In this document: positions 29,662-42,512 of the stretch, in pieces | Layout of the letters: each line of letters begins with the position of its first letter | Position numbering within the stretch: the first letter of the stretch is position 1 | Assembly (NCBI GenBank): GCA_045863395.1 | Contig: BTVJ01000030.1 | Coordinates: 24,225-88,224, forward strand | Source of the DNA: Myxococcales bacterium | Lineage (GTDB): Bacteria; Myxococcota_A; UBA9042; JABWCM01; BTVJ01 | DNA: 64,000 nt | Reading direction: 5' to 3' | Notes under the pieces: model-generated | Database searches by the model: none | The model's input: the letters and a program-made list of their open reading frames with translations, nothing else | What the model was told of the DNA's origin: nothing | Program-made: the position numbers and the translations under genes

Positions 29662-30408
29662 TCACATCACCAGGCCGCCGTCCACGTCCACGACGCGCCC
29701 GTTGAAGTAGTCGCACTCGATGATGAACCTCGCGGCGAGCCAGATGTCCTCGGGGAGGCCGATGCGCCCGACGGGGATGGCGGCGACCAGGGCGTCGCGG
29801 GCCTTCTGGTTCATGCCCTGGGTCATGGGGGTCTCCACCATGCCGGGGGCGATGGCGCCCACGCGGATGCGGAATGGAGCGAACTCCCGCGCCCACGTCA
29901 CGGTGTTGGCCGCGAGCGCCGCCTTGGCCGACACGTAGTTGGACTGGCCCCGGTTCCCGTGCCGCGCCACCGACGACATGTTGATGATGACGCCCGGGCC
30001 GGAGTCCGTCTCGGCGATCTTCGCGGCCACCTCGCGCACCATGAAGGTGGCGCCGCTCAGGTTCACGCCGATGACCGCTGCCCACGCCTCGTCGGAGAGC
30101 TTCCTCACCTCGCCCGTCGCGCGGTCCTTCTTGACGAGGAGGCCGTCGCGCAGGATGCCCGCGTTGTTGACCAGGCCGTTGAGGCCGCCCATGGCGTCAT
30201 GGGCCCAGGCGACGAAGGACTCGCAGTCGGCGGAGCTGGAGACGTCCAGCCGGCGCCGATGGATGCCCGCGGGGAGCTCCGCCATGACCGCCTCGTTCAT
30301 GTCGCCGACGGCCACCTGCGCCCCCGCCTCGTGGAGGCGGCGCGCCATGTGCGCCCCGATGCCCTGCGCTCCGCCGGTGACGATTATCTTCAGTTCATTC
30401 AGTTGCAT
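29662..30408 (-). CDS. fabG: SDR 3-oxoacyl-ACP/CoA reductase (FabG-like; probable PhaB role)
   Basis: TGGAQGIG, NNAGILRD, GQSNYVSAK (YxxxK); start overlaps phaC end. Confidence 0.85.
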   Translation of the reverse strand: MQLNELKIIVTGGAQGIGAHMARRLHEAGAQVAVGDMNEAVMAELPAGIHRRRLDVSSSADCESFVAWAHDAMGGLNGLVNNAGILRDGLLVKKDRATGEVRKLSDEAWAAVIGVNLSGATFMVREVAAKIAETDSGPGVIINMSSVARHGNRGQSNYVSAKAALAANTVTWAREFAPFRIRVGAIAPGMVETPMTQGMNQKARDALVAAIPVGRIGLPEDIWLAARFIIECDYFNGRVVDVDGGLVM

Positions 30409-31382
30409 AGCCTGCTCCTCAGCCACGAAGTGAGTTCGGGGTACAGCACGGTGGTCGCCTTGCTTCCGACGACGGCGCCCACGTGCCCGCCGGGAACCGT
30501 AAATACCCGCTTGTCGCTGGAACCGCAACGGTCATTGAGCGCGGTCGCGGCCGGTGGGGGGCAGATCGTGTCGCGGGATGTCACCACCGTCATGACGGGG
30601 CAGCGGATGGCCCCCAGATCCACGCGGCGCCCGGCGACCACGTGGGTCCCCGCCACGAGCTGGTTCTCTTGATAGAGGTCGTGGATGTAGCGCTGGTAGG
30701 CCGCCGCGGGGAACGGGATGTTGTCGCCCGCCCAGGCCTCGAGCGCCTCGAAGGCGAGCCGGTCCGCGGGGCTGTGCGCCCGGTCGAGGAAGCCGACCCA
30801 CTTGGCGAGCTGCGACGTGGGGCGCATGGCGACGAAGCCGCTCTGCATCTGCGCCGGTGAGAGGTTGCCCGCCGCCGTGAGGCCCGAGGGGTCGAACCAC
30901 CGGGGATCCACCATGTGGCGCAGCACCCCGCCCTCGGAGAAGTCGATGGGGCCCGCCAGGTTGACCAGCGCCGCCACCTGGTCCGGGTGGAGCGCGGTCC
31001 AGATGGCGGAGACCGTGCCGCCCATGCAGTAGCCGAGCACGCCCACCTTCGGGGCGCCGGTCTCCCGCTTGACGCGCCGCACCATGCGGCCGATGCGCGC
31101 GATGACGTCGTCCCACTCCAGGTAGCGGTCCTCGTCGTTGGGGATGCCCCAGTCGAGGCACCAGGTATCGAGGCCCGACTCCACGAGCGCCGACGCCAGG
31201 GACGCGCCTTCGCGCAGGTCCAGCACGTACCAGCGGTTGATCATGGACGGGATGAGGAGCAGGGGGAGGCCCGGGTCCGGCGCCCTCTGGCCGCGGAAGC
31301 GGGTGAGCTGCGCCGTCCCGTCCCGGAGCACGGTGTCCCTCGGGGTGGGCATCAGGGGTAGAGCGGGGCTCGCGAGGAGCAT
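30399..31382 (-). CDS. phaC: PHA synthase, class III-like PhaC subunit (copy 1)
   Basis: PSMINRWYVLDL, DWG, lipase box GYCMGG, Asp in RDTIC, GGHVG; GAGGAG RBS. Confidence 0.85.
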   Translation of the reverse strand: MLLASPALPLMPTPRDTVLRDGTAQLTRFRGQRAPDPGLPLLLIPSMINRWYVLDLREGASLASALVESGLDTWCLDWGIPNDEDRYLEWDDVIARIGRMVRRVKRETGAPKVGVLGYCMGGTVSAIWTALHPDQVAALVNLAGPIDFSEGGVLRHMVDPRWFDPSGLTAAGNLSPAQMQSGFVAMRPTSQLAKWVGFLDRAHSPADRLAFEALEAWAGDNIPFPAAAYQRYIHDLYQENQLVAGTHVVAGRRVDLGAIRCPVMTVVTSRDTICPPPAATALNDRCGSSDKRVFTVPGGHVGAVVGSKATTVLYPELTSWLRSRLCN

Positions 31383-31393
31383 GGGGACTCCTC

Positions 31394-31744
31394 TCAGGCG
31401 GCGAGCTTGGACTTCACGGCCTCGGCGGCCTGCCGCGTGGCGTCCATGGTGACCTTGCGCCACTCCGTGCCGAGCGTGTTGGCGTAGGTGACCGTCTCCT
31501 TCACCAGCTTCGCGGTCTCGTCGATGGCGGTCATGGTCTGCGCGAGCGCCTTCTCGTTGAGCTTGCCGACCTCCTCGAAGAGGGAGCCCATGCGCGCCAT
31601 CTGGTCGTCCATCAGCTTCTTCCAGGCGTTGAGCGCCTCGTGCGCCTGCTGGGCGCCGGTGAACGGGGGGAACGCCGTGAACGGGGGGACGCTCTGGTCG
31701 GCGGACTTTGCGCTGCTCTTGGTGCTCTCGCTGGTCGTGCTCAT
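31394..31744 (-). CDS. Phasin-like small helical protein
   Basis: 116 aa amphipathic helical, Ala/Lys/Thr-rich; first gene upstream of phaC; PhaR-type boxes in its promoter. Confidence 0.6.
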   Translation of the reverse strand: MSTTSESTKSSAKSADQSVPPFTAFPPFTGAQQAHEALNAWKKLMDDQMARMGSLFEEVGKLNEKALAQTMTAIDETAKLVKETVTYANTLGTEWRKVTMDATRQAAEAVKSKLAA

Positions 31745-31814
31745 GGTGGTCTCCTCTCGGGTCTTCGTGGGCGGCGTCAGTGCCACCAGACGAGAGCGAG
31801 GATAGGGCGCGTGT

Positions 31815-31850
31815 TGCAGTGCGTCAAGGTGTTATTTTGCAGTGCAGCAA
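31815..31850. promoter_or_regulatory. Putative PhaR operator (TGC-N3-GCA boxes)
   Basis: TGCAGTGCG at 31815 and TGCAGTGCA at 31838; 31834-31850 reverse complement matches 42626-42642 at 15/17. Confidence 0.65.
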
Positions 31851-31902
31851 ATTTTTCAATCATGGCAGGGCGCCCCCGGGAAGCAGTGGCGCTGCCTCGT
31901 CG

Positions 31903-32349
31903 CTACGGCCGCCGGCCAAGCCACGCCCGCCACGCCGCGGCGTCCGTGCCCAGGCGCTGCCCGGTGAGCACCTCCAGGGCCGCGGCGACCCGGCCGCGCT
32001 CCTCGTCACCCCACGCCGGGGTCCCGAGCGACGCCACCAGCAGCTCCAGGTGGCCGAGGGCCGGGGTACGGCGCATGATCTCCACCACTACGGAGCGCCG
32101 CGCCGGGTCCGACGACACCACGCCCTCGTGCAGCTCCGAGAGGCAGAGCCGGTCCATGGCCGCCGCGGCCGCCGCCACCTGGGGCTCGGCCGCTCCGTCG
32201 AGGCGCTGCGCCGTCGCCGCCGCATCGACCAGCGCCCGGCACCGCTCCACCACCGCGAGCTGTTCGCCCGGGCCCGGCTTCGCCCCGCAGGCCCCCGCCG
32301 CCGCCGCGATCACCGCCAGCGCCCGCGCGCCGACCCACATGCTGCTCAT
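31903..32349 (-). CDS. Small helical lipoprotein of unknown function
   Basis: Lipobox AGAC; GGAGG RBS; ATGA overlap with ATPase stop; C-terminal LEVLTGQRLGTDAAAWRAW. Confidence 0.65.
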   Translation of the reverse strand: MSSMWVGARALAVIAAAAGACGAKPGPGEQLAVVERCRALVDAAATAQRLDGAAEPQVAAAAAAMDRLCLSELHEGVVSSDPARRSVVVEIMRRTPALGHLELLVASLGTPAWGDEERGRVAAALEVLTGQRLGTDAAAWRAWLGRRP

Positions 32350-34535
32350 GGCTTCCTCCTTGGGACGATCTCCCGCACGACCTTGCCGAGGGACTGGTAC
32401 TCCTCGTTGGCGGCGCGCAGCAGGTGCGCCTGCGTGATGGGCTCCTCCGCCAGCGCCGCCAGGAAGGCCGCGCGGAGCACCGCGTTGGCGATGTGGCCGC
32501 CCGAGAGATCGAAGTCCTCGCCGAGCCCTGCGAAGTCGATGGGCGCCGCGCCGAGGGCCACCCGCGGCACCAGCAGCTCCCAGAGCCTGGCGCGCTCGAC
32601 GGGACCCGGCGCCGCGAAGTGGACCCGGTGGTTGATGCGCCGCACAAAGGCGGTGTCCATGCTCGCCTCCAGGTTCGTCGTCAGGATGGCGACCCCCTCG
32701 AAGCGCTCGATGCGCTGAAGGAGGTAGCTGGTCTCCTGGTTCGCGTACCGGTCGTGGGAGGAGCTGACGGACGTGCGCGTCGCGAACAGCGAGTCGGCCT
32801 CGTCGAACAGGAGCAGCGCCCGGCGCGACGCCAGCTCGTCGAAGAGCGCGCCCAGGTTCTTCTCCGTTTCGCCGATGAACTTGGACACCACCTGCGACAG
32901 GTCCACCCGCAGCAGCTCCAGGTCGAGCATGCGCGCCAGGATCCGCGCCGCGTGGGTCTTTCCCGTTCCGGGCGGCCCGTGGAACAGCGCCGTCAGGCCA
33001 CGGCGCGGGATGCGGCGCCCGAGGCCCCAGGTGCCGAACACGAGCTCCGCGTGCTGGTGCTGCGCGACGATCAGCTCGAGGCGCTCGCGCACCTCGGGCG
33101 ACACGACCAGCTCGTCGAGGGACCCGCCGGGGGTCATCCGCTCGACGAGGGGTCCGAGGCGCTCGCCGGTGTGCGCCTCCAGCGCGTCCTCGATGAGCCG
33201 CCCCACGTCGCCCCGGCCGCTCCCGGCGAGGCGCAGCGACTGCACGACCGAGCGGATCGTGCCGCCCGTCACGCGGTAGCGGGCCGCCAGCCATGCCGGG
33301 TCGAGCCCCTCGGCGCCCGGAAGGCGTCGCATGGCCTGCGTCCAGAGGGACGTGCGGGTCTCATGATCCGGGCGCGAGAGCTGCGCCGCCATGACGGCCC
33401 GCGGGCGCAGGTCCAGGGAGGGGCGCTGCTCCGTGTCGACGCACACGACGAGGGGAAGCGGGTCGCGCTCGGTCAGAGCGCGCAGGCGGTCCGCCGTCAC
33501 CGGGTCGAGGGCCTCGCTGAAGTGCAGGACCAGCAACGCGCGGAGGAGCCGGGCCTCCCGGGCGAGCTTCACGAGCGCCTCGTCACTGAGGCGCGCGCGC
33601 CGCGCGTCGGCAATCAGCGCCGCGCCGCCAAGGCGGGACGCCAGGGCAGACGCCACCGTCCGCTTGCCCGTGCCCTCGGGCCCATACAGCAGTAGCACGG
33701 GCGAACCCGCCGGCAGGGTGCCCTGCTCCGCCGCGGACACGAAGGTGTCGGCGGCGCCTTGGAGGCGTGCGCGGACCTCCTCGGAGAGGATCAGGCCGCG
33801 GGTGATCTCCGGGTGGCCGGTGGTCGGCGGTGACAAGGTCGCGAGCCCCTCCAGGGCGGGGTCGAGGCCCGTATCGTCCCGCAGGAACTCCACTACCCGG
33901 CGCGCCGGGACGAGCTCCATGCGCAGCACGCCGATGCGGTCCGGGTCGTCGACGAGCGGCGGGCAGAGCAGCCGGTGGCGAAGCAGCGGCGCGTCGATGC
34001 GCAGCGCGTCGCGCACGGCGTCTCGCTCGCCCTCGGTCGTGGCGAGCAGCGCGAGGGCCAGCGCGCCGTCGGGGGCCTGCCGCGTCACGTCGTCCTGGAG
34101 GAACGCCACGGTCCGGCGCACGGCCTCCGACAGCTCGGCGGCCGTCGCGAGCACCAGGAGCGCCGACGCCGTGGAGTCGAGCCCGAAGGCGTCGCGCACG
34201 CTGGCGAGCGGCAGAGGCACTCCGCAGGTGGCCGAGGCCCGCTCGCGGGCAGCGACGACCGCGTCCAAGTGCGCGACCGCCGCGCGGAGGCGCTCCACCT
34301 CCGCGCCCTGGGGCGCCTGGGCTGGGGGGCGGACGGCGGCTGGGGGGGCGAAGAAGCTCCCCGCCCACCGGTCGGGACGCTCCACGAGCAGCCCCGCCTC
34401 CTGGGCGGCGGCCACATGCAGCAGGAGGCGCAAGCGGACGCCCTCCACCAGGGCGCCGAGGTGCTCGCGGCCCGTGGTGAACAGCCCCGTCAGCGGCTCG
34501 CAGAGCCAGGCGTCGAGCTCCGCCTGCGGGATCAT
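32346..34535 (-). CDS. eCIS/Afp15-like (CDC48-type) double AAA+ ATPase
   Basis: Walker A1 GPEGTGKR (Walker B degenerate); Walker A2 GPPGTGKT, LLFDEADSLF, SKFIGETEKNL, DRYANQETSYLLQRIE. Confidence 0.88.
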   Translation of the reverse strand: MIPQAELDAWLCEPLTGLFTTGREHLGALVEGVRLRLLLHVAAAQEAGLLVERPDRWAGSFFAPPAAVRPPAQAPQGAEVERLRAAVAHLDAVVAARERASATCGVPLPLASVRDAFGLDSTASALLVLATAAELSEAVRRTVAFLQDDVTRQAPDGALALALLATTEGERDAVRDALRIDAPLLRHRLLCPPLVDDPDRIGVLRMELVPARRVVEFLRDDTGLDPALEGLATLSPPTTGHPEITRGLILSEEVRARLQGAADTFVSAAEQGTLPAGSPVLLLYGPEGTGKRTVASALASRLGGAALIADARRARLSDEALVKLAREARLLRALLVLHFSEALDPVTADRLRALTERDPLPLVVCVDTEQRPSLDLRPRAVMAAQLSRPDHETRTSLWTQAMRRLPGAEGLDPAWLAARYRVTGGTIRSVVQSLRLAGSGRGDVGRLIEDALEAHTGERLGPLVERMTPGGSLDELVVSPEVRERLELIVAQHQHAELVFGTWGLGRRIPRRGLTALFHGPPGTGKTHAARILARMLDLELLRVDLSQVVSKFIGETEKNLGALFDELASRRALLLFDEADSLFATRTSVSSSHDRYANQETSYLLQRIERFEGVAILTTNLEASMDTAFVRRINHRVHFAAPGPVERARLWELLVPRVALGAAPIDFAGLGEDFDLSGGHIANAVLRAAFLAALAEEPITQAHLLRAANEEYQSLGKVVREIVPRRKP

Positions 34536-34912
34536 GGGGTCTCCTCCCTGGGCGCAACGAACGCCAGCAAGACGGCGGGCCCACCCCCTGCGGCCTCCGC
34601 GTAGGCGCGCCCCAGCGCGGTGGCGTCTCCGTAGCCGTGGGAGTCCTCCGCACGAAAGAGCGACTCCCCGATGGCCCGAGCGAGCCACGTCCGCAGCGCC
34701 TGCCTCCCAGGCCACCCGCCAAACAGACGGGCGTCGAGCACCACCGTCCCCGTGGCCTCGTCGAAGAGCCCGAGCCGCTCACCCGGGAGGCGCGCCTTGA
34801 CGTAGGCAACGACCGCCGGGTTCCCGGTCACGTGGGCGTCGGGGAGGCGCTCCAGCTCGTCCCAGAGCCGCTCCAGATCGCTCGCCTCCCATGGCACGCG
34901 GGTCGCTCGCAC
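34532..34912 (-). CDS. Small protein resembling an inactive copy of the DUF4157 protein's C-terminal peptidase domain
   Basis: Fills the gap between CpXC and ATPase genes, ATGA overlap; DLERLWDELERLPDAHVTGN vs DLGRLWTILDRLPESQIEDN. Confidence 0.65.
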   Translation of the reverse strand: MRATRVPWEASDLERLWDELERLPDAHVTGNPAVVAYVKARLPGERLGLFDEATGTVVLDARLFGGWPGRQALRTWLARAIGESLFRAEDSHGYGDATALGRAYAEAAGGGPAVLLAFVAPREETP

Positions 34913-35749
34913 TCAGCTCTCCTCGTGGGTCGGCCGGCCCTGGGGGAGCGTCGAGTCCACGGGGGCCGGCGCCATCAGGACGGCCCCGGGGGAGCCGCCT
35001 GGTGGGGCGATTGTCTGCGTCGACGCCGCCAGCAGGTCGGACCAGCGCGCCGCGGCCTCGACCGCACGCGCGTCATGCAGGGGTGGGTAGAGCACGCGGT
35101 CCAGGTGCACGAAGGCCCCCTCGAACAGCTCGGGCGTCCGCTCCCGGTACTCGTCCAGGCGTGCGACGACCCGGTCGTAGAGCTGCCGGCCGCAGCCGAC
35201 CCGCTGGATGTCGCTCGTGCCCCTCACGCGCACCTCCAGCTCGAAGCGCTCTGCCCCTGGCAGGAGCCGCACCGCCATGCCGGGCCGCATGAGCCCTGGG
35301 TGGCGGGCGAGCACCCGCAGCTTCACGAGCTCGACGGCCCGGTCGTCGAGGCCGGCGTCCCAGGCGTGGAGCTTCTCCGCGAGCTGGTCGTAGCCGAACA
35401 CGAGGCGCACCACGAAGCGAGGAGCCAGGGCCTGGATCATGGGTGGGGCGGCGCGCACCACGACGCGCTCGAACTCGGCCAGCAGCTCGCGCTCCAGGAC
35501 GCTCCAGCTCGCGGTCCACTCCTGGGGGCAGACGCCGACCCAGTGGAAGCGGGCGAAGTCCGTATAGAGCAGCTTCTTCTCGATGGTGCGCAGCTCCCCG
35601 CACGCCGGGCAGGCGGCGCGGTGGAACGTGCCATCGAGGATCCGCGCGCGCACCTCCGGCAGGCGCGACACGTGGAGGCCGTCGGCGACCTGCGCGCTGA
35701 GCTCGTGCCCGCACGGGCATCTGACCATCCGGGTGGCCCAGGTCGACAT
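34913..35749 (-). CDS. CpXC domain (zinc ribbon) protein
   Basis: RCPCG...PEVRARILDGTFHRAACPACG...LLYTD; RLVFGYDQLAEK. Confidence 0.8.
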   Translation of the reverse strand: MSTWATRMVRCPCGHELSAQVADGLHVSRLPEVRARILDGTFHRAACPACGELRTIEKKLLYTDFARFHWVGVCPQEWTASWSVLERELLAEFERVVVRAAPPMIQALAPRFVVRLVFGYDQLAEKLHAWDAGLDDRAVELVKLRVLARHPGLMRPGMAVRLLPGAERFELEVRVRGTSDIQRVGCGRQLYDRVVARLDEYRERTPELFEGAFVHLDRVLYPPLHDARAVEAAARWSDLLAASTQTIAPPGGSPGAVLMAPAPVDSTLPQGRPTHEES

Positions 35750-35995
35750 GCGGCTCTGCTCCGTGGCCCTCGCCTGGAGTCCCGCCAACGCCGTGCGAAG
35801 CCGGAGACGTTTGAGAAGCTCGGCGCCAAGGGTAGCCCGGGCGCCGCGCGGGGTCCAGCCGTTGCGCCTCCCGAGGCGGGGCGCGGTCGAGTGATCTCGA
35901 GGTCTTGCGCGTGTCGTCCGCCCGCATGGCGCCAGGCATGCGTCGCTGTGGTATGCTCCCCATCCATCCGGGACATCGAGACGAGCGAGGGGCCC

Positions 35996-38900
35996 ATGCG
36001 GGACAGGCGTGAGCGCGGCGAGGAGGCAGAGAGGGCCGGGGGATCTGCCGGGGCTTTGGGTCCCGCGGAGACCAGGCCGAGGCGCGGCAACGCCGCCATG
36101 GCGCGGGCCGCGCTCGCCGAGCGGGGCGCTCCGAGGGCCGTCAGGCAGGTGCTCGAGGGCGGCGGGCGTCCGCTCCATGAGGGCGAGCTCGCACCCTTCG
36201 AGGGGGCCCTGGACGGCGACCTCTCCGGGGTGCGGATCCACGAAGGGGCCAACGCCGAGCGCGCCGCCGCGTCCGTCGGTGCCCGCGCCTTCACCGCCGG
36301 CCAGGACGTGGTCATGGGCAGCGGCGCCACGGCGGCGACGCTGGCCGAGGAGGTCGTCCACGCGCTGCAGCCGCAGGACCCGTCCCCGGCGGCGCTGGTC
36401 AGCGACCCGGGCGCCGCCGCGGAGCACGAGGCGCGGGGCGCCGTCGCCGCCCTCGCGCAGGGCCGCGCGGTCACCCCCTCCGAGACCCGCACCGCGGCCC
36501 TGGTCCGGGAGGCCTCGGGCGCGTCCCGAATCAGCGAGCTCCGCCAGCTCCTGGACGACGGCGACGAGGACGGCGCCATCAGCCTCATGGGCCGGCTCTC
36601 GGCGGCGGAGGTGGCCTCGGTCCTCGGCAACGCGAGCCTCAAGCAGCTCGCGGTCTCCTGCTTCGACGACGAGGAGATGTACCGCGGCGTCCGCGCCATG
36701 GGCGGCGACCTGTGGAAGTCGCTCGATTGGATGTTCGCGGAGGGCACGAGCCTCAGCTACGTGCTCGACGTCATCAACCGGTGCGCGAGCGATGCCCAGA
36801 AGGACGTGGTGCGCCGGAGCGGCACCATGCGCAGCCACTTCGTCGGGCTGTGCGATGATGGCGAGATGGTGCAGGTCACGAGTGCCCTCGGCGGGACGCT
36901 GGCGCAGAAGCTCGACTGGATGTTCGCCGAGGGCACGAGCTGGCAGGCGGCCCGCGCCCTGATCGTCGCCGCCCCGGAGGACCAGAAGGCCGCCGTGCGC
37001 ACCAGCGCCACCATGCGCGCGAGCTTCATCTCGCTGCTCGGCAACGACGAGATGCGCGACTGCGTGCAGGTGCTCGGCGGCCGCCTCATCGACCAGCTCA
37101 CGTGGATGTTCGCCGAGGGCACCGACTGGCCGTCCGTGCGGCAGATCATCGAGGCCCAGCCGGACCCGGCCCAACGGGCCGCCGTGCGTCAGAGCGCCGC
37201 CATGCGCGACGCCCTCGTGGGTGTCTGCGGCGACGACGAGATGGAGGACGCGGTGGTCCTCCTCGGTGGCGACCTCCGGTGGCGGCTCCAGTGGATGTTC
37301 GCGGAGGGCACGAGCTTCGAGGCGGTCAAGCGCCAGATCGGGCGCTGCCCCGAGTCGGAGCGCGCCGCCGTGACCACGGACACGGCGCTGCGAGACCACT
37401 TCGTGTCGCTGCTCGGTGACCAGGAGATGCAGGAGCTGGTGGGGATCCTGAGCGGCGACCTGCTGTTCAAGGTGGATTGGCTCATCGCCGAGGGCACGAG
37501 CTGGGACGCCATCAAGACCCACATCCAGGCGGCGCCGGAGTCACAGAAGGCGGCCGTGCGCGGCAGCGCCACGGCGCGGGCTCGCTTCTGCGACCTGCTC
37601 GGCAACGACCAGATGGCGGAGGCCGTCGACCTGCTCGGCGGGGACCTGCGGTTCAAGCTCGACTGGATGTTCGAGGAGGGCACCGACTGGGCTGCCGTCC
37701 GCGCGAAGATCACCGCCGCGGACGAGGCCGGGAAGGCCGCGGTGCGGGCGGACCCGACCATGCGCGGCCACTTCGTCTCGCTGCTCGGCAACGCGGAGAT
37801 GCAGGAGGCCGTGGGGCTGCTCGGGGGCGACCTGCGCTTCAAGCTCGACTGGATGATGGAGGAGGGCACGGACTGGGCGACCGTCCGCGCGATGATCGTC
37901 GCGGCGGACGAGCCGCAGCGGGCCGCGGTGCGTGGAGACTCCCGGATGCGGGGCCACTTCGTGTCGCTTCTCGGCAACGTAGAGATGGCCGACGCGGTGG
38001 TGGTGCTCGGAGGCGACCTGCGGTTCCAGCTCGACTGGATGTTCGCGGAGGGCACGGACTGGCCGACCGTCAAGGCGCGCATCCAGGCGGCGGACGAGGC
38101 CGGGCGGGCCGCCGTTCGTGGCGACCGGACCATGCGTGACCGCTTCGTGTCGCTGCTCGGCGACGACGAGATGCGCGAGGCGGTGGACCTGCTGGGCGGC
38201 GACCTGCGCTTCAAGCTCGAGTGGATGATGGAGGAGGGCACCGAGTGGTCCATCGTCCGGGCGATGATCGTCGCCGCGTCCGAGGCGGAGCGCGCGACCG
38301 TGCGCGGGGACCGGCGGATGCGGGAGCGCTTCGTGTCGCTGCTCGGCAACGACGAGATGGCCGACGCCGTGGTGGTGCTCGGGGGCGACCTGCGGTTCCA
38401 GCTCGACTGGATGTTCGCGGAGGGCACGGACTGGGCTACGGTCAGAGGGCGCATCCAGGCGGCGGACGATGCGGGGCGGGCGGCGGTGCGGCAGGACCCG
38501 GCCATGCGGGGCCACTTCGTGTCGCTGCTCGGCAACGACGAGATGGCGGAGGCCGTGGTGCTGCTCGGGGGGGACCTGCGGTTCCAGCTCGACTGGATGT
38601 TCGCGGAGGGCACGGACTGGCCGACCGTCCGCGGGCGCATCCAGGCGGCCGGCGAGGCGGAGCGTGCCGCCGTGCGTGCGGCGCCGGGGATGCGAGCGCT
38701 GTTCGTCTCGCTCTGCGGCGACGCGGAGATGGCCGAGGCGGTGGGGCTCCTCGGCGGGGACCTGAGGTTCAAGCTGGAGTGGACCCTGGAGGAGGGCACC
38801 ACCTGGGCGGCGGCGCGGGCCCTCATCGAGGCGGCCCCGGAGGCGGAGCGGGCGGTCGTGCGAGGGGACGCGGCCATGCGCGACCGCTTCGTGGGGCTGC

Positions 38901-41900
38901 TCGGCGACGACGAGATGGCCGAGGCGGTGGACGTGCTCGGGGGCGACCTGCGCTTCAAGCTCACCTGGATGTTCGCCGAGGGCACGGACTGGGCGGCCGT
39001 GCGGGCGAAGATCACGGCGGCGGACGAGGCGGGCAAGGCGGCAGTGCGGGGTGACGCGGCGATGCGCGGCCACTTCGTCTCATTGCTTGGCAACGCCGAG
39101 ATGGCGGAGGCGGTGGGGCTCCTCGGAGGGGACCTGCGCTTCAAGCTGGACTGGATGTTCGAGGAGGGAACCGACTGGGCGACGGTGCGCCCGCTGCTGG
39201 TCGCCGCGCCCGAGGCGGAGCGGGCGGCGGTGCGGACTGATCGGGCGATGCGGGGGCACTTCGTGTCCCTGCTCGGGGACGAGGAGATGAAGGACGCCGT
39301 GACCGTGCTCGGGGGCGACCTGCGATTCAAGCTCGAGTGGACCCTGGAGGAGGGCACGACGTGGGCCGAGGCCCGCGCCCTCATCGAGGCGGCGCCGGAG
39401 ACGGAGCGGGCGGCTGTGCGTGCGGACGCCGCCATGCGGGCGCGCTTCGTGTCGCTGCTCGGGGACGATGAGATGCGCGACGCAGTGGGGCTCCTCGGCG
39501 GGGACCTGCGCTTCAAGCTCGACTGGATGTTCGCGGAGGGCACGAGCTGGGAGTCGGTGCGCCCGCTCATCGAGGCGGCGCCGGAGACCGAGCGGGCGGC
39601 GGTGCGGACCGATCCGGCCATGCGCGCCCACTTCGTGTCGCTGCTCGGCAACGACGAGATGGCAGCCGCGGTGCAGCTCCTGGGCGGGGATCTGCTCTTC
39701 CAGCTCGACTGGATGTTCGCCGAGGGCACGGACTGGCCGACGGTGCGCGAGCGGATCCGCGCCGCCCCGGAGGCGCAGCGCGCGGCGGTGCGGGAGAGCG
39801 CCGCCATGAAGGGGCGCTTCATCGAGCTCCTGGGCAACGACGAGATGCGCGAGGCGGTGGGGCTCCTCGGGGGCGACGTCTTCTTCCACCTGACCTGGAT
39901 GCTGGCCGAGGGGACGAGCTGGGAGGCGGTCCGCGCGGAGCTGGAGGCGGCCGACGAGGCGGGGAAGGCGCGCATCCGCGGCGATCTCGGCATGCGCGGC
40001 TGGTTCGTCGACAACCTGAACGACGCGCAGATGGCCGACGCGGTGGGGCTCCTCGGGGGCGACCTGCGCTTCAAGCTCGGGTGGACCCTGGCGGAGGGGA
40101 CGACCTGGGCGGCCGTCCGGGCGCTGATCGAGGCCGCGCCGGCGCCGGAGCGCACGGCGGTCGCCAGCGACCACGAGCTGATGGCGAGCATCGCGGCGCT
40201 CTGCACCGCGCAGGAGCTGCGAGCGGCCCTCGACCTGCTCGGCGCGGACCTGGTGGTCCGGGTGGGCTTCCTGCTGGGCCAGGGCATCGACGACGCCGGG
40301 CTGCGGGCGACCATCGCGGCGGCGCCGCCCGAGCAGCAGATGGCGCTCATCGGGAGCACGCACCTCGCGGGCGTTCTGGCCACGCTGACGGGGAGCGCCA
40401 TCGACGCCTTCACCGCGCTGGCCGACCCGGGCCGCTTCGCTACCGCGATGGGCAACCCGACCATGGTCAGTGAGCTCCTGGAGCAGCCGGCAGACGGCGT
40501 GCTGACACGGCTGGCAGGGACCGAGGCGGCGGCCGCGGCGGCGCTGAACCACATGGACGACAGCCTGTCGTGGATGCGCCCGCTGCCGGTGCGGGGCGCG
40601 CTGTCGGAGCCGCAGCGGCAGGCGCTGCGTGTGCTGTTCAACCAGGCGCCGCGGGTGCCGCAGCGGTGGAGCCTCTTCGAGCGGCGCTTCGGCGCCGATC
40701 TCTCCGGGCGCTGGGGGAGCACGCTGGACCCGGGGGACCTCGGGCGGCTCTGGACGATCCTCGACCGGCTCCCGGAGTCGCAGATCGAGGACAACCGCTA
40801 CATCGACGACCTGGTGCGCCACTTCCGAGGCGGCGGGACCTACCAGGGCGGGACCATCAACATCGGCTCCATGCCGAACGACCACGACTTCTACGCCCCG
40901 GAGGGCTGGCGCACACGCTCGGAGATTGCGGGGATCCTGGGCATCTCGGAGGCCGACGTGGACGCGCAGGTCACGGCGGGCATGATCCGGAAGCAGACCA
41001 TCGGGGGCCAGGACCTCTACTCCCTGTTTCAGTCCTACACCAAGCCCCAGATGGCGGGCCTTCTGGGGATCACCGAGGCGGACGTGGACACCCTCGCGGC
41101 GTCGTCCGTCCTCGTGCGCAATGGGACTCTGTACCGCATCAACCACGCCCAGTGGCGGACGGCGGCAGAGATGGCGGCGTACCTGGGCATCCCGGAGGGG
41201 GACCTGGACGGCCGCGTCACCGCCGGGCAGCTCGTGCGGGCGACGGTGGGCGGGGCTGTGAAGTACGCGGTGCGGCTGGTGGTGCAGTCCTACTTCGACC
41301 ACACGGTGCTCCACGAGGTGGGCCATGCGGTGGACGACATGCTCGGCAACCACACGGACATCGTGTACGGGTGGGCCGGCTGGGAGAAGTACGGCGAGGG
41401 AGACGTACGCAGGTGGGCCGACCAGATGGGGGGCTGGGGGCCGGTGCAGGCCGGCGACACCCTGGAGGACATCAAGTCGGCGATCTGCTCCGCCATGGAC
41501 GACTACATGGACAAGTCGTCGGACATCCCGGCCCCGGGGGAGAACATCGGCGCGGACCTTCCGCCCACCCACGCCTGGCACCGGTATTCCAACTGGCCCA
41601 TCGTGCGCTGGGCCGGGACCAAGATGTTCCACTACACGACGCCCCACCCCCACGACGACGGGACCCACCTCTACACGGCCAACTTCTACTACCAGAAGTG
41701 GATGCGCGTGAAGAGCGCGGCGGTGCGGTCCATCCCGCGCGACTACACGCGGTTCGCGCCCGAGGAGTGGTTCGCCGACTCCTACGCCGAGTTCTACCGC
41801 CTCTACGACGGCACCCCTGCGACCGAGCACCTCAAGGGAGGCAACCTCCAGAGCGTCGTGAAGGAGTGGTTCAGACAGCACGTGGACCAGCGCGGTCGCA

Positions 41901-41968
41901 CGCCTCAGAACCAGACGGCGGGCGGAAGACCGTCGCCGACGTCTGGCGTCCACAGCGGGCGGAGGTAG
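35996..41968 (+). CDS. DUF4157 (eCIS core domain) protein with 19 helical repeats and C-terminal HEXXH metallopeptidase; putative toxin/effector
   Basis: GNAA, GGRPL, DLSGVRIHEG, ARAFTAGQDV, EHEA; HEVGH and PEEWFADSYA at C-terminus; 1990 aa from ATG 35996. Confidence 0.85.
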   Translation: MRDRRERGEEAERAGGSAGALGPAETRPRRGNAAMARAALAERGAPRAVRQVLEGGGRPLHEGELAPFEGALDGDLSGVRIHEGANAERAAASVGARAFTAGQDVVMGSGATAATLAEEVVHALQPQDPSPAALVSDPGAAAEHEARGAVAALAQGRAVTPSETRTAALVREASGASRISELRQLLDDGDEDGAISLMGRLSAAEVASVLGNASLKQLAVSCFDDEEMYRGVRAMGGDLWKSLDWMFAEGTSLSYVLDVINRCASDAQKDVVRRSGTMRSHFVGLCDDGEMVQVTSALGGTLAQKLDWMFAEGTSWQAARALIVAAPEDQKAAVRTSATMRASFISLLGNDEMRDCVQVLGGRLIDQLTWMFAEGTDWPSVRQIIEAQPDPAQRAAVRQSAAMRDALVGVCGDDEMEDAVVLLGGDLRWRLQWMFAEGTSFEAVKRQIGRCPESERAAVTTDTALRDHFVSLLGDQEMQELVGILSGDLLFKVDWLIAEGTSWDAIKTHIQAAPESQKAAVRGSATARARFCDLLGNDQMAEAVDLLGGDLRFKLDWMFEEGTDWAAVRAKITAADEAGKAAVRADPTMRGHFVSLLGNAEMQEAVGLLGGDLRFKLDWMMEEGTDWATVRAMIVAADEPQRAAVRGDSRMRGHFVSLLGNVEMADAVVVLGGDLRFQLDWMFAEGTDWPTVKARIQAADEAGRAAVRGDRTMRDRFVSLLGDDEMREAVDLLGGDLRFKLEWMMEEGTEWSIVRAMIVAASEAERATVRGDRRMRERFVSLLGNDEMADAVVVLGGDLRFQLDWMFAEGTDWATVRGRIQAADDAGRAAVRQDPAMRGHFVSLLGNDEMAEAVVLLGGDLRFQLDWMFAEGTDWPTVRGRIQAAGEAERAAVRAAPGMRALFVSLCGDAEMAEAVGLLGGDLRFKLEWTLEEGTTWAAARALIEAAPEAERAVVRGDAAMRDRFVGLLGDDEMAEAVDVLGGDLRFKLTWMFAEGTDWAAVRAKITAADEAGKAAVRGDAAMRGHFVSLLGNAEMAEAVGLLGGDLRFKLDWMFEEGTDWATVRPLLVAAPEAERAAVRTDRAMRGHFVSLLGDEEMKDAVTVLGGDLRFKLEWTLEEGTTWAEARALIEAAPETERAAVRADAAMRARFVSLLGDDEMRDAVGLLGGDLRFKLDWMFAEGTSWESVRPLIEAAPETERAAVRTDPAMRAHFVSLLGNDEMAAAVQLLGGDLLFQLDWMFAEGTDWPTVRERIRAAPEAQRAAVRESAAMKGRFIELLGNDEMREAVGLLGGDVFFHLTWMLAEGTSWEAVRAELEAADEAGKARIRGDLGMRGWFVDNLNDAQMADAVGLLGGDLRFKLGWTLAEGTTWAAVRALIEAAPAPERTAVASDHELMASIAALCTAQELRAALDLLGADLVVRVGFLLGQGIDDAGLRATIAAAPPEQQMALIGSTHLAGVLATLTGSAIDAFTALADPGRFATAMGNPTMVSELLEQPADGVLTRLAGTEAAAAAALNHMDDSLSWMRPLPVRGALSEPQRQALRVLFNQAPRVPQRWSLFERRFGADLSGRWGSTLDPGDLGRLWTILDRLPESQIEDNRYIDDLVRHFRGGGTYQGGTINIGSMPNDHDFYAPEGWRTRSEIAGILGISEADVDAQVTAGMIRKQTIGGQDLYSLFQSYTKPQMAGLLGITEADVDTLAASSVLVRNGTLYRINHAQWRTAAEMAAYLGIPEGDLDGRVTAGQLVRATVGGAVKYAVRLVVQSYFDHTVLHEVGHAVDDMLGNHTDIVYGWAGWEKYGEGDVRRWADQMGGWGPVQAGDTLEDIKSAICSAMDDYMDKSSDIPAPGENIGADLPPTHAWHRYSNWPIVRWAGTKMFHYTTPHPHDDGTHLYTANFYYQKWMRVKSAAVRSIPRDYTRFAPEEWFADSYAEFYRLYDGTPATEHLKGGNLQSVVKEWFRQHVDQRGRTPQNQTAGGRPSPTSGVHSGRR
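36701..40240 (+). repeat. Intragenic tandem array: 19 x ~186 bp (62 aa)
   Basis: Consensus GGDLRFKLDWMFAEGTDWAAVRALIxAAPEAERAAVRxDxAMRxHFVSLLGNDEMAEAVGLL; 3540 bp = 17 x 62 aa + 2 x 63 aa. Confidence 0.95.
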
Positions 41969-41978
41969 TGTCGGGCGC

Positions 41979-42512
41979 CTACTGGCGCCGCAGGAGGAGC
42001 TGCTTCAGCTCGTCGAGCTCCTTGCGCAGCGCGGCGACCTCGTCGCGGGAGGCTGTGCGGTCATCGCGGGCATCGGGGTCCGGGGGCGGCTCGTCGTCGG
42101 GGGGCTCGACGGGCGCGCTGGGCCGTGACCGGGGGGCGGGGCGCCCGAAGGGCATGGGGATGGGCTGCGACGCGAAGGGGTTGAGGTGGGTGAACAGGCC
42201 GATGCCCCGGCGGGCCTGCATGTAGACCTCGAAGGCCCAGCTCACCCAGCGGCCCATGAACTCGGCGAAGGGCAGGTCGCCCATGCGGATCATCTGGACC
42301 AGCAGCGGGGTCGGCAGCAGCTTCGCGGCGCCCCGGCTCTCGAACAGGATCTGCGTGAGGGTCACCTGGGTCAGGTCCTCACCGGTCTTCGCGTCCGTGA
42401 CGACCACATCCGCGCCCCGCTCGATCTTGACCGCCAGCTCCTCCAGCGTGACGTAGCGGCTCTCGTCCGTGTCGTAGAGCCGGCGGTTGCTGTACTTCTT
42501 GATGACGACCAT
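41979..42512 (-). CDS. phaR: PHA synthesis repressor PhaR
   Basis: IKKYSNRRLYDT, YVTLEEL, DAKTGEDLT..TLTQI. Confidence 0.92.
   Translation of the reverse strand: MVVIKKYSNRRLYDTDESRYVTLEELAVKIERGADVVVTDAKTGEDLTQVTLTQILFESRGAAKLLPTPLLVQMIRMGDLPFAEFMGRWVSWAFEVYMQARRGIGLFTHLNPFASQPIPMPFGRPAPRSRPSAPVEPPDDEPPPDPDARDDRTASRDEVAALRKELDELKQLLLRRQ

Follow-up and report, generated by a model that had tools for sequence, protein, structure and literature searches.

The window, the whole 64,000-nucleotide stretch of Myxococcales bacterium DNA that was analysed, carries four coupled genes on the minus strand, in the order CpXC protein, 126-aa protein, WHD–AAA ATPase and 148-aa lipoprotein; the gene for a large predicted effector diverges from them (Table 1). 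The 126-aa gene has a ribosome site, GAGGAG, 6 nt upstream and overlaps the start of the ATPase gene by 4 nt. This overlap and the operon position agree with the co-transcription with the ATPase that an earlier reading, made from the sequence alone, had proposed. The codon GC of the 126-aa gene (0.78/0.56/0.87) is gene-like, and alternative frames across it were ruled out by the codon pattern and by homology. A scan for promoters and terminators found nothing within the module. Contigs from RNA libraries lie over the gene (X1, 34289–35803; X2, 34176–35781; X4, 34595–35798; X3, 34622–34852); they carry no information on strand or level and do not establish a single transcript. The intergenic region offers a weak hint: the RNA contigs of two studies stop at 35781–35803 and resume at 35980–35994, and one contig of a third study reaches 35909. 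At 31851–31909, a contig of run X3 has 663 other letters, and contigs of X1 and X2 extend past 31909 by about 490–640 letters; related strains may possess an extra gene after the lipoprotein.

Table 1. Genes and features of the locus (positions within the window).
Feature	Positions	Strand	Remarks
Predicted lipoprotein, 148 aa	31903..32349	-	lipobox-like AGAC, by eye
AAA+ ATPase, 729 aa, WHD and AAA domains	32346..34535	-	
Pseudo-zincin, 126 aa	34532..34912	-	predicted M34/ALF-like fold without HExxH; GTG start
RAIGE, pseudo-zincin residues 79–83, occupying the HExxH position	34664..34678	-	
Motif WxxxxLxRxWxxLxxLPxxHxxxN, pseudo-zincin residues 8–31	34820..34891	-	common to the active family (alignment column table)
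CpXC protein, 278 aa	34913..35749	-	PF14353, E 1.6e-22; stop abuts pseudo-zincin start
Intergenic region, CpXC operon versus effector gene, divergent	35750..35995	.	
Predicted effector, 1,990 aa	35996..41968	+	eCIS core (DUF4157), at least 18 repeats of 62 aa, C-terminal ALF-like zincin
eCIS core domain of effector	36170..36376	+	PF13699, E 8.9e-13
Active-type zincin domain of effector	40715..41900 (approximate ends)	+	HEVGH at 41312–41326, third-ligand Glu at 41765

The neighbouring genes combine a DUF4157 domain with an associated AAA+ ATPase, which are features of eCIS/PVC effector modules; the ATPase is presumably of the eCIS-associated (Afp15/Pvc15-like) type. The label 'toxin' for the effector is a prediction from its architecture. 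The DUF4157 motif of the effector is EEVVH, as against HExxH in the eight other copies of the genome, and represents a second degenerate zincin at the locus. The effector linker (about 36700–40200) is built of tandem helical repeats to which Pfam gives no credible name. Thirteen ATPase paralogues and nine eCIS core domains were counted in the genome, whose sheath and tube genes are found on contig C80, without linkage to the locus. A second module of the same genome (G000:C50, L001:5200–12480) comprises an ATPase, a DUF4157–zincin, a CpXC protein and a 193-aa gene; the dead zincin is absent from it. The whole module is situated within a polyhydroxyalkanoate cluster (29662–42512), with phaR (41979–42512) on one side and a phasin-like gene, phaC and a reductase gene on the other, the gene at 31394–31786 being taken here as the phasin; this placement suggests an insertion.

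The sequence-only reading had matched motifs of the 126-aa protein with motifs of the effector's zincin domain. The quoted toxin motifs were located at 40736, 41294 and 41765, and the first motif pair is identical at 10 of 20 positions by direct count. Pairwise likeness is thin, with a BLASTP E-value of 3e-4 across 28 residues and of 5.2 against the whole genome, so a family was collected for profile comparison. With the zincins of the window and of a related locus (L007) left out, an HMM built on 47 active zincin domains picks up the 126-aa protein with 31.1 bits (E 5.7e-7 in a search of 72,795 ORFs from the genome). Four zincin ORFs alone score higher in this search and the next unrelated ORF reaches 11.2 bits; the best score of the shuffled 126-aa sequence is 6.5 bits (2,000 shuffles, 1,519 scored). 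Profile–profile comparison with hhalign yields a probability of 92.5% (E 5e-7, residues 4–62), in agreement with homology, and short-loop active members align with residues 3–90 of the protein, with gaps nearly absent.

A zincin fold is also predicted by structural modelling. The AF2 model obtained from the four dead homologues alone (pLDDT 80.3, pTM 0.73) has the topology helix–helix, three strands, long helix, helix; single-sequence AlphaFold modelling of the 126-aa protein gives pLDDT 44. The top matches of the model are zincins, including lugdulysin (Z 8.2, rmsd 3.4, 111 aligned), the lethal factor catalytic domain (Z 7.5–7.7) and the lethal factor N-terminal binding domain (1j7n_A 46–258; Z 7.8, rmsd 3.6, 119 aligned). 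The lists of structural matches are filled by this one fold class, a Z of 7–8 being middling according to the tool's own note. An ESM Atlas model (pTM 0.78) matches ATLF, Peptidase_Mx1, M90 and SprT clusters at TM 0.54–0.72; the Atlas feature scores for ATLF clusters (0.88–0.89) serve as leads only. A Foldseek search gave no match at E 0.001, Pfam (E up to 1) and NCBIfam returned no family for the 126-aa protein, and no credible match to this protein or to CpXC came from sequence searches of the PDB. The Pfam ATLF model (PF07737) scores the neighbouring zincin at 9.7 bits against a cut-off of 27.4; a relative, P0007, carries PF07737. As judged from profiles and models, the 126-aa protein is a zincin homologue, M34/ATLF-like, with a predicted zincin fold.

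The loss of HExxH, which had been noticed from the letters, is confirmed by the family alignment. In MAFFT, R79-A80-I81-G82-E83 falls on the HExxH motif that is invariant in 40 of the 40 active rows, so that Arg stands at the first His, Ala at the catalytic Glu and Glu at the second His; the dead homologues follow the same pattern with GLIGE and RLVGE. The 126-aa protein is therefore predicted to be catalytically dead, as would be expected from established zincin chemistry. The accompanying claim that the third ligand is lost stands on weaker ground: Thr98 appears to take this position by alignment and the model has a helix at 97–109, but the segment is not significant for the 126-aa protein alone, since an equal or better score is reached by 291 of 500 shuffles and the second hhalign segment has p of about 0.04–0.05. 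For the homologue P0012 the segment is significant, with no such score in 500 shuffles, so the third-ligand helix is supported through P0012 and the model. As for the two insertions said to be absent, the second is indeed lost: the segment that leads from HExxH to the third ligand, with a median length of 154 aa across 79 active domains, is gone in the dead form. Many active relatives lack the first insertion as well, and what sets the dead form apart is therefore the loss of the second alone.

The lobe that separates HExxH from the third ligand shapes the substrate cleft of zincins. Its loss bears on the possibility that the dead zincin acts as a substrate shield, binding the target of the peptidase without cutting it and thereby protecting the producer. 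The model retains two elements of the zincin fold, its edge strand and its long active-site helix, and inactive peptidases are proposed as peptide binders in the accessible part of PMC3482391, but a lobe of about 150 aa that is present in all 79 measured active domains has disappeared, and a shielding role appears quite unlikely.

Three further proteins (P0008, P0011 and P0012) share about 40% identity and the same His-to-Glu motif change, which is taken as a sign of retention by selection; they bring the dead forms to four sequences among 1.84 billion representatives. Two other candidates, P0009 and P0010, were dropped as repeat-protein noise (the sequence of P0010 was inspected). The small gene had been described as a copy of the neighbouring toxin's peptidase domain, and this description is contradicted by the comparison: dead forms score 122–186 against the 126-aa protein and any active domain 103 at most, the neighbouring zincin ranks 25th of 58 by likeness, and the AU test rejects a clade of the 126-aa protein and its neighbour (p 0.00024). 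In a tree of 46 rows, the four dead forms make up one side of a branch with 99/95 support; two dead rows have long branches in this tree, resemblance to the query was the basis on which the homologues were found, and the loss of the motif in all of them can draw the rows together. The sequences can be read as the result of a single old loss of catalysis, probably maintained since. Word-index searches for further dead homologues recovered known members only, and a GTDB scan with the 126-aa protein found no dead homologue among 586 candidates. When 101 relatives and 401 genomes of the phylum were searched by profile, there were 15 non-self matches, including G371 (the zincin of L077), all of them active zincins or chance matches that we take to be Mur-ligase-like. 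The four-sequence dead-form profile also matches such Mur-ligase-like proteins at 19–26 bits, so only the active-side search is clean.

The dead gene might also be what is left of a toxin tip that was once duplicated, without any function, as its rarity and the broken zincin pieces at other loci (L042, L059, L068, L137) would suggest. However, deletion pattern and motif change are the same in all four members, which are divergent and yet form one clade, the reading frame is intact and has a ribosome site and coupling, and the models fold with confidence; a remnant is improbable.

The pairing of active zincins with CpXC was surveyed from both sides. The CpXC-first set contains 70 loci, two weak CpXC places (G405 and G235) being left out, and an active zincin accompanies CpXC in 57 of 69. 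The zincin-first set, taken from another GTDB scan, contains at least 47 loci; among the matches listed, CpXC is found in 43 of 47, and the remaining four end near the zincin or gave no match. After the removal of six duplicates, at least 94 loci have both genes. Among the 94 loci listed, the pair lies within 1.2 kb in 88, CpXC is downstream on the same strand in 75 and the two are fused in four. The fusions come from betaproteobacterial records (L113:4983-6950, L119:1406-3193, L124:2238-4082 and L129:9107-10831) and have CpXC first; this order, CpXC and then zincin, is that of CpXC and the pseudo-zincin in the window. The CxC/CxxC cysteines are lost from the CpXC part of all four, which may consequently work differently.

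Zincin and CpXC show co-divergence (rho 0.37, 0 of 2,000 permutations), although shared inheritance would give the same. The zincin's nearest relative is among CpXC's three nearest in 35 of 40 loci, and paralogous zincin–CpXC pairs within one genome track their own clades. The association of CpXC with ALF-like zincins occurs in records of Myxococcota, Pseudomonadota, Actinomycetota and Planctomycetota. Among the matches listed, the ATPase is present in 24 and DUF4157 in 12 of the 94 loci; the small share of zincins with DUF4157 indicates that the pair is wider than eCIS. A gene of 150–330 aa, often with a lipobox-like motif and belonging to one of several groups, adjoins the pair in many loci. 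CpXC is a candidate inhibitor or chaperone of the ALF-like zincin. The survey also revealed three tandem active zincin genes ahead of a single CpXC (L085:2797-7552), two divergent zincin–CpXC pairs lying back to back (L126) and zincin genes split by stops or frameshifts (L042, L059, L068 (the same as L128), L137 and L002).

The dead zincin was detected in two of the 94 non-redundant zincin–CpXC loci among the matches listed, the window and L007, the latter being fetched because of P0012 (L008 is a second assembly with an identical protein). The order in L007 is CpXC, ATPase, active zincin, dead zincin fused to a lipoprotein-domain copy, and lipoprotein, which makes up the same five-part module as in the window. 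The lipoprotein-type domain of the fusion is signal-less and resembles the lipoprotein of the next gene (E 1.6e-14). The lipoprotein-type domain of L007:10001-11700 matches unnamed Atlas clusters at 0.93–0.94. A clear relative of the window's 148-aa lipoprotein occurs among the survey genes only in L009, whose zincin is also the closest; this lipoprotein is an ordinary immunity candidate. With a probability of about 0.85, the 126-aa protein represents a conserved dead zincin belonging to the zincin–CpXC module. The dead zincin is an optional accessory, outside the system core.

Since the dead zincin was undetected in 92 of the 94 non-redundant loci among the matches listed, it cannot be the general immunity gene of the module. 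In an accessory form of the immunity idea, the dead zincin would bind the active zincin as a heterodimer, alone or with the lipoprotein-type domain, and block it in the producer cytoplasm. The dead gene of L007 directly follows the active zincin, where an immunity gene would usually lie, its fusion to a signal-less copy of the locus lipoprotein keeps the idea alive, and the window's dead gene belongs to the operon holding all non-toxin genes. Nevertheless, the failure to detect it in those 92 loci weighs against accessory immunity too, the sequence does not track that of the neighbour as would be expected of a cognate immunity protein, and the slot is already filled by CpXC and the lipoprotein; such a role is considered unlikely. 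Of the interpretation offered by the sequence-only reading, the zincin fold, the family homology, the loss of zinc-binding and catalytic residues and the operon are retained, the neighbour copy and the general immunity are not, and CpXC had been overlooked.

Another proposed role is that of an adaptor for the AAA ATPase, aiding the recognition or loading of the effector. Pvc15 loads and stabilises payloads according to the accessible part of PMC11495950, the ATPase is found at both mapped dead-zincin loci (against 24 of 94 loci among the matches listed) and the dead gene overlaps the ATPase start in the window. However, two of two would occur by chance with a probability of about 0.06 at 24/94, the dead zincin is not seen in 22 of the 24 ATPase loci among the matches listed, and recognition by Pvc15 reportedly depends on N-terminal signals, so an adaptor has a low probability.

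The preferred reading, held at somewhat less than even odds, is that the 126-aa protein is a non-catalytic mimic of the active zincin which binds the zincin's own partner, most likely CpXC. CpXC would bind the zincin as a cytoplasmic inhibitor or chaperone, and the binding surface would be the N-terminal helix–strand subdomain, which the dead form retains while dropping the lobe of about 150 aa after HExxH. The mimic would be produced in step with CpXC via translational coupling and could stabilise or titrate it, thereby tuning the holding of the effector versus its release to the ATPase. Retention of the N-terminal subdomain and helical core, along with loss of the catalytic residues and lower lobe, suits a binding mimic, and CpXC is suggested as its partner because it is the constant companion of the zincin, precedes it within four fusion genes and is linked to the dead gene here by translational coupling. 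On the other hand, the dead gene of L007 follows the active zincin and not CpXC, the context being known for two loci, and its fusion to the lipoprotein copy points toward the lipoprotein side. Furthermore, the retained residues are largely hydrophobic and possibly just the fold core, the CpXC role is itself inferred, co-inheritance alone yields co-divergence, and the four fusions are devoid of the CxC/CxxC cysteines. Complex prediction for CpXC (227 aa, 42 rows) and the small protein (119 aa, 44 rows) gave 0.00 in two runs, with a mark of 0.32 and without controls, and is neutral. The broader proposal, in which a widespread ALF-like protease toxin would have CpXC as its dedicated inhibitor and the 126-aa protein would be a toxin-shaped decoy that binds CpXC and regulates or soaks it up, is regarded as rather unlikely.

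Lethal-factor-type N-terminal binding domains are not known to carry HExxH and presumably arose by duplication. The PA-binding (N-terminal) domains of anthrax lethal factor, edema factor and Certhrax (M34) are likewise non-catalytic zincins beside an active one, and the binding domains of this group are among the structural matches (1j7n_A 46–258, Z 7.8; 1xfu_A, 7.1; 4gf1_B, 7.2). These PA-binding domains comprise about 210 aa, are part of a secreted toxin chain and bind the translocase, whereas the pseudo-zincin is the product of a free 126-aa gene and has 11–16% identity with them; it has no Pfam ATLF match, and no protective-antigen-like gene was seen at the locus. CDD places the non-catalytic binding domains in family M34 (accessible part of the supplement of PMC8213781), which provides a precedent for the binding-mimic reading.

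In the accessible part of Zhang et al. 2012 (PMC3482391), Tox-ALF-MPTase is named in PVC-type (eCIS) systems with Imm-SuFu as the listed immunity; the deltaproteobacterial proteins described there resemble the neighbour in their DUF4157 N-terminus, long linker, C-terminal ALF-like HExxH and adjacent CDC48-like ATPase. Neither the word 'CpXC' nor a dead standalone ALF-like gene appears in that accessible text, and 'CpXC' is also absent from the accessible text of PMC11297309. The eCIS toxins of Geller et al. 2021 (PMC8213781, accessible part) have a DUF4157 domain, a long linker and a toxin domain, like the neighbouring effector, and most of them are described as having no evident immunity genes. 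The enrichment table of this source gives 0/734 for CpXC and 0/625 for ATLF inside eCIS operons; unlike these operons, the window locus is a satellite, away from structural genes. In the literature searched, mostly outside subscription papers, no description was found of the zincin–CpXC gene pair, of a free, minimal dead M34-like zincin subfamily in a bacterial conflict module, or of a function or partner of CpXC (PF14353).

Dead M34 zincins are already known as binding domains inside anthrax-type toxins, and the rarity of the dead gene limits its reach. If the decoy reading is true, it would provide the first function for PF14353 and a third, mimic-based component in a toxin–immunity pair. 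The link between CpXC and the zincin probably outweighs the dead gene in importance. The gene upstream of the pseudo-zincin is a clear member of PF14353, here tied to an ALF-like zincin; through fusions and co-divergence, this uncharacterised Pfam family is now linked to one protease family over several phyla. CpXC offers a candidate, amenable to testing, for the immunity that DUF4157-type effectors seem to lack, a question named as open in the accessible part of PMC8213781.
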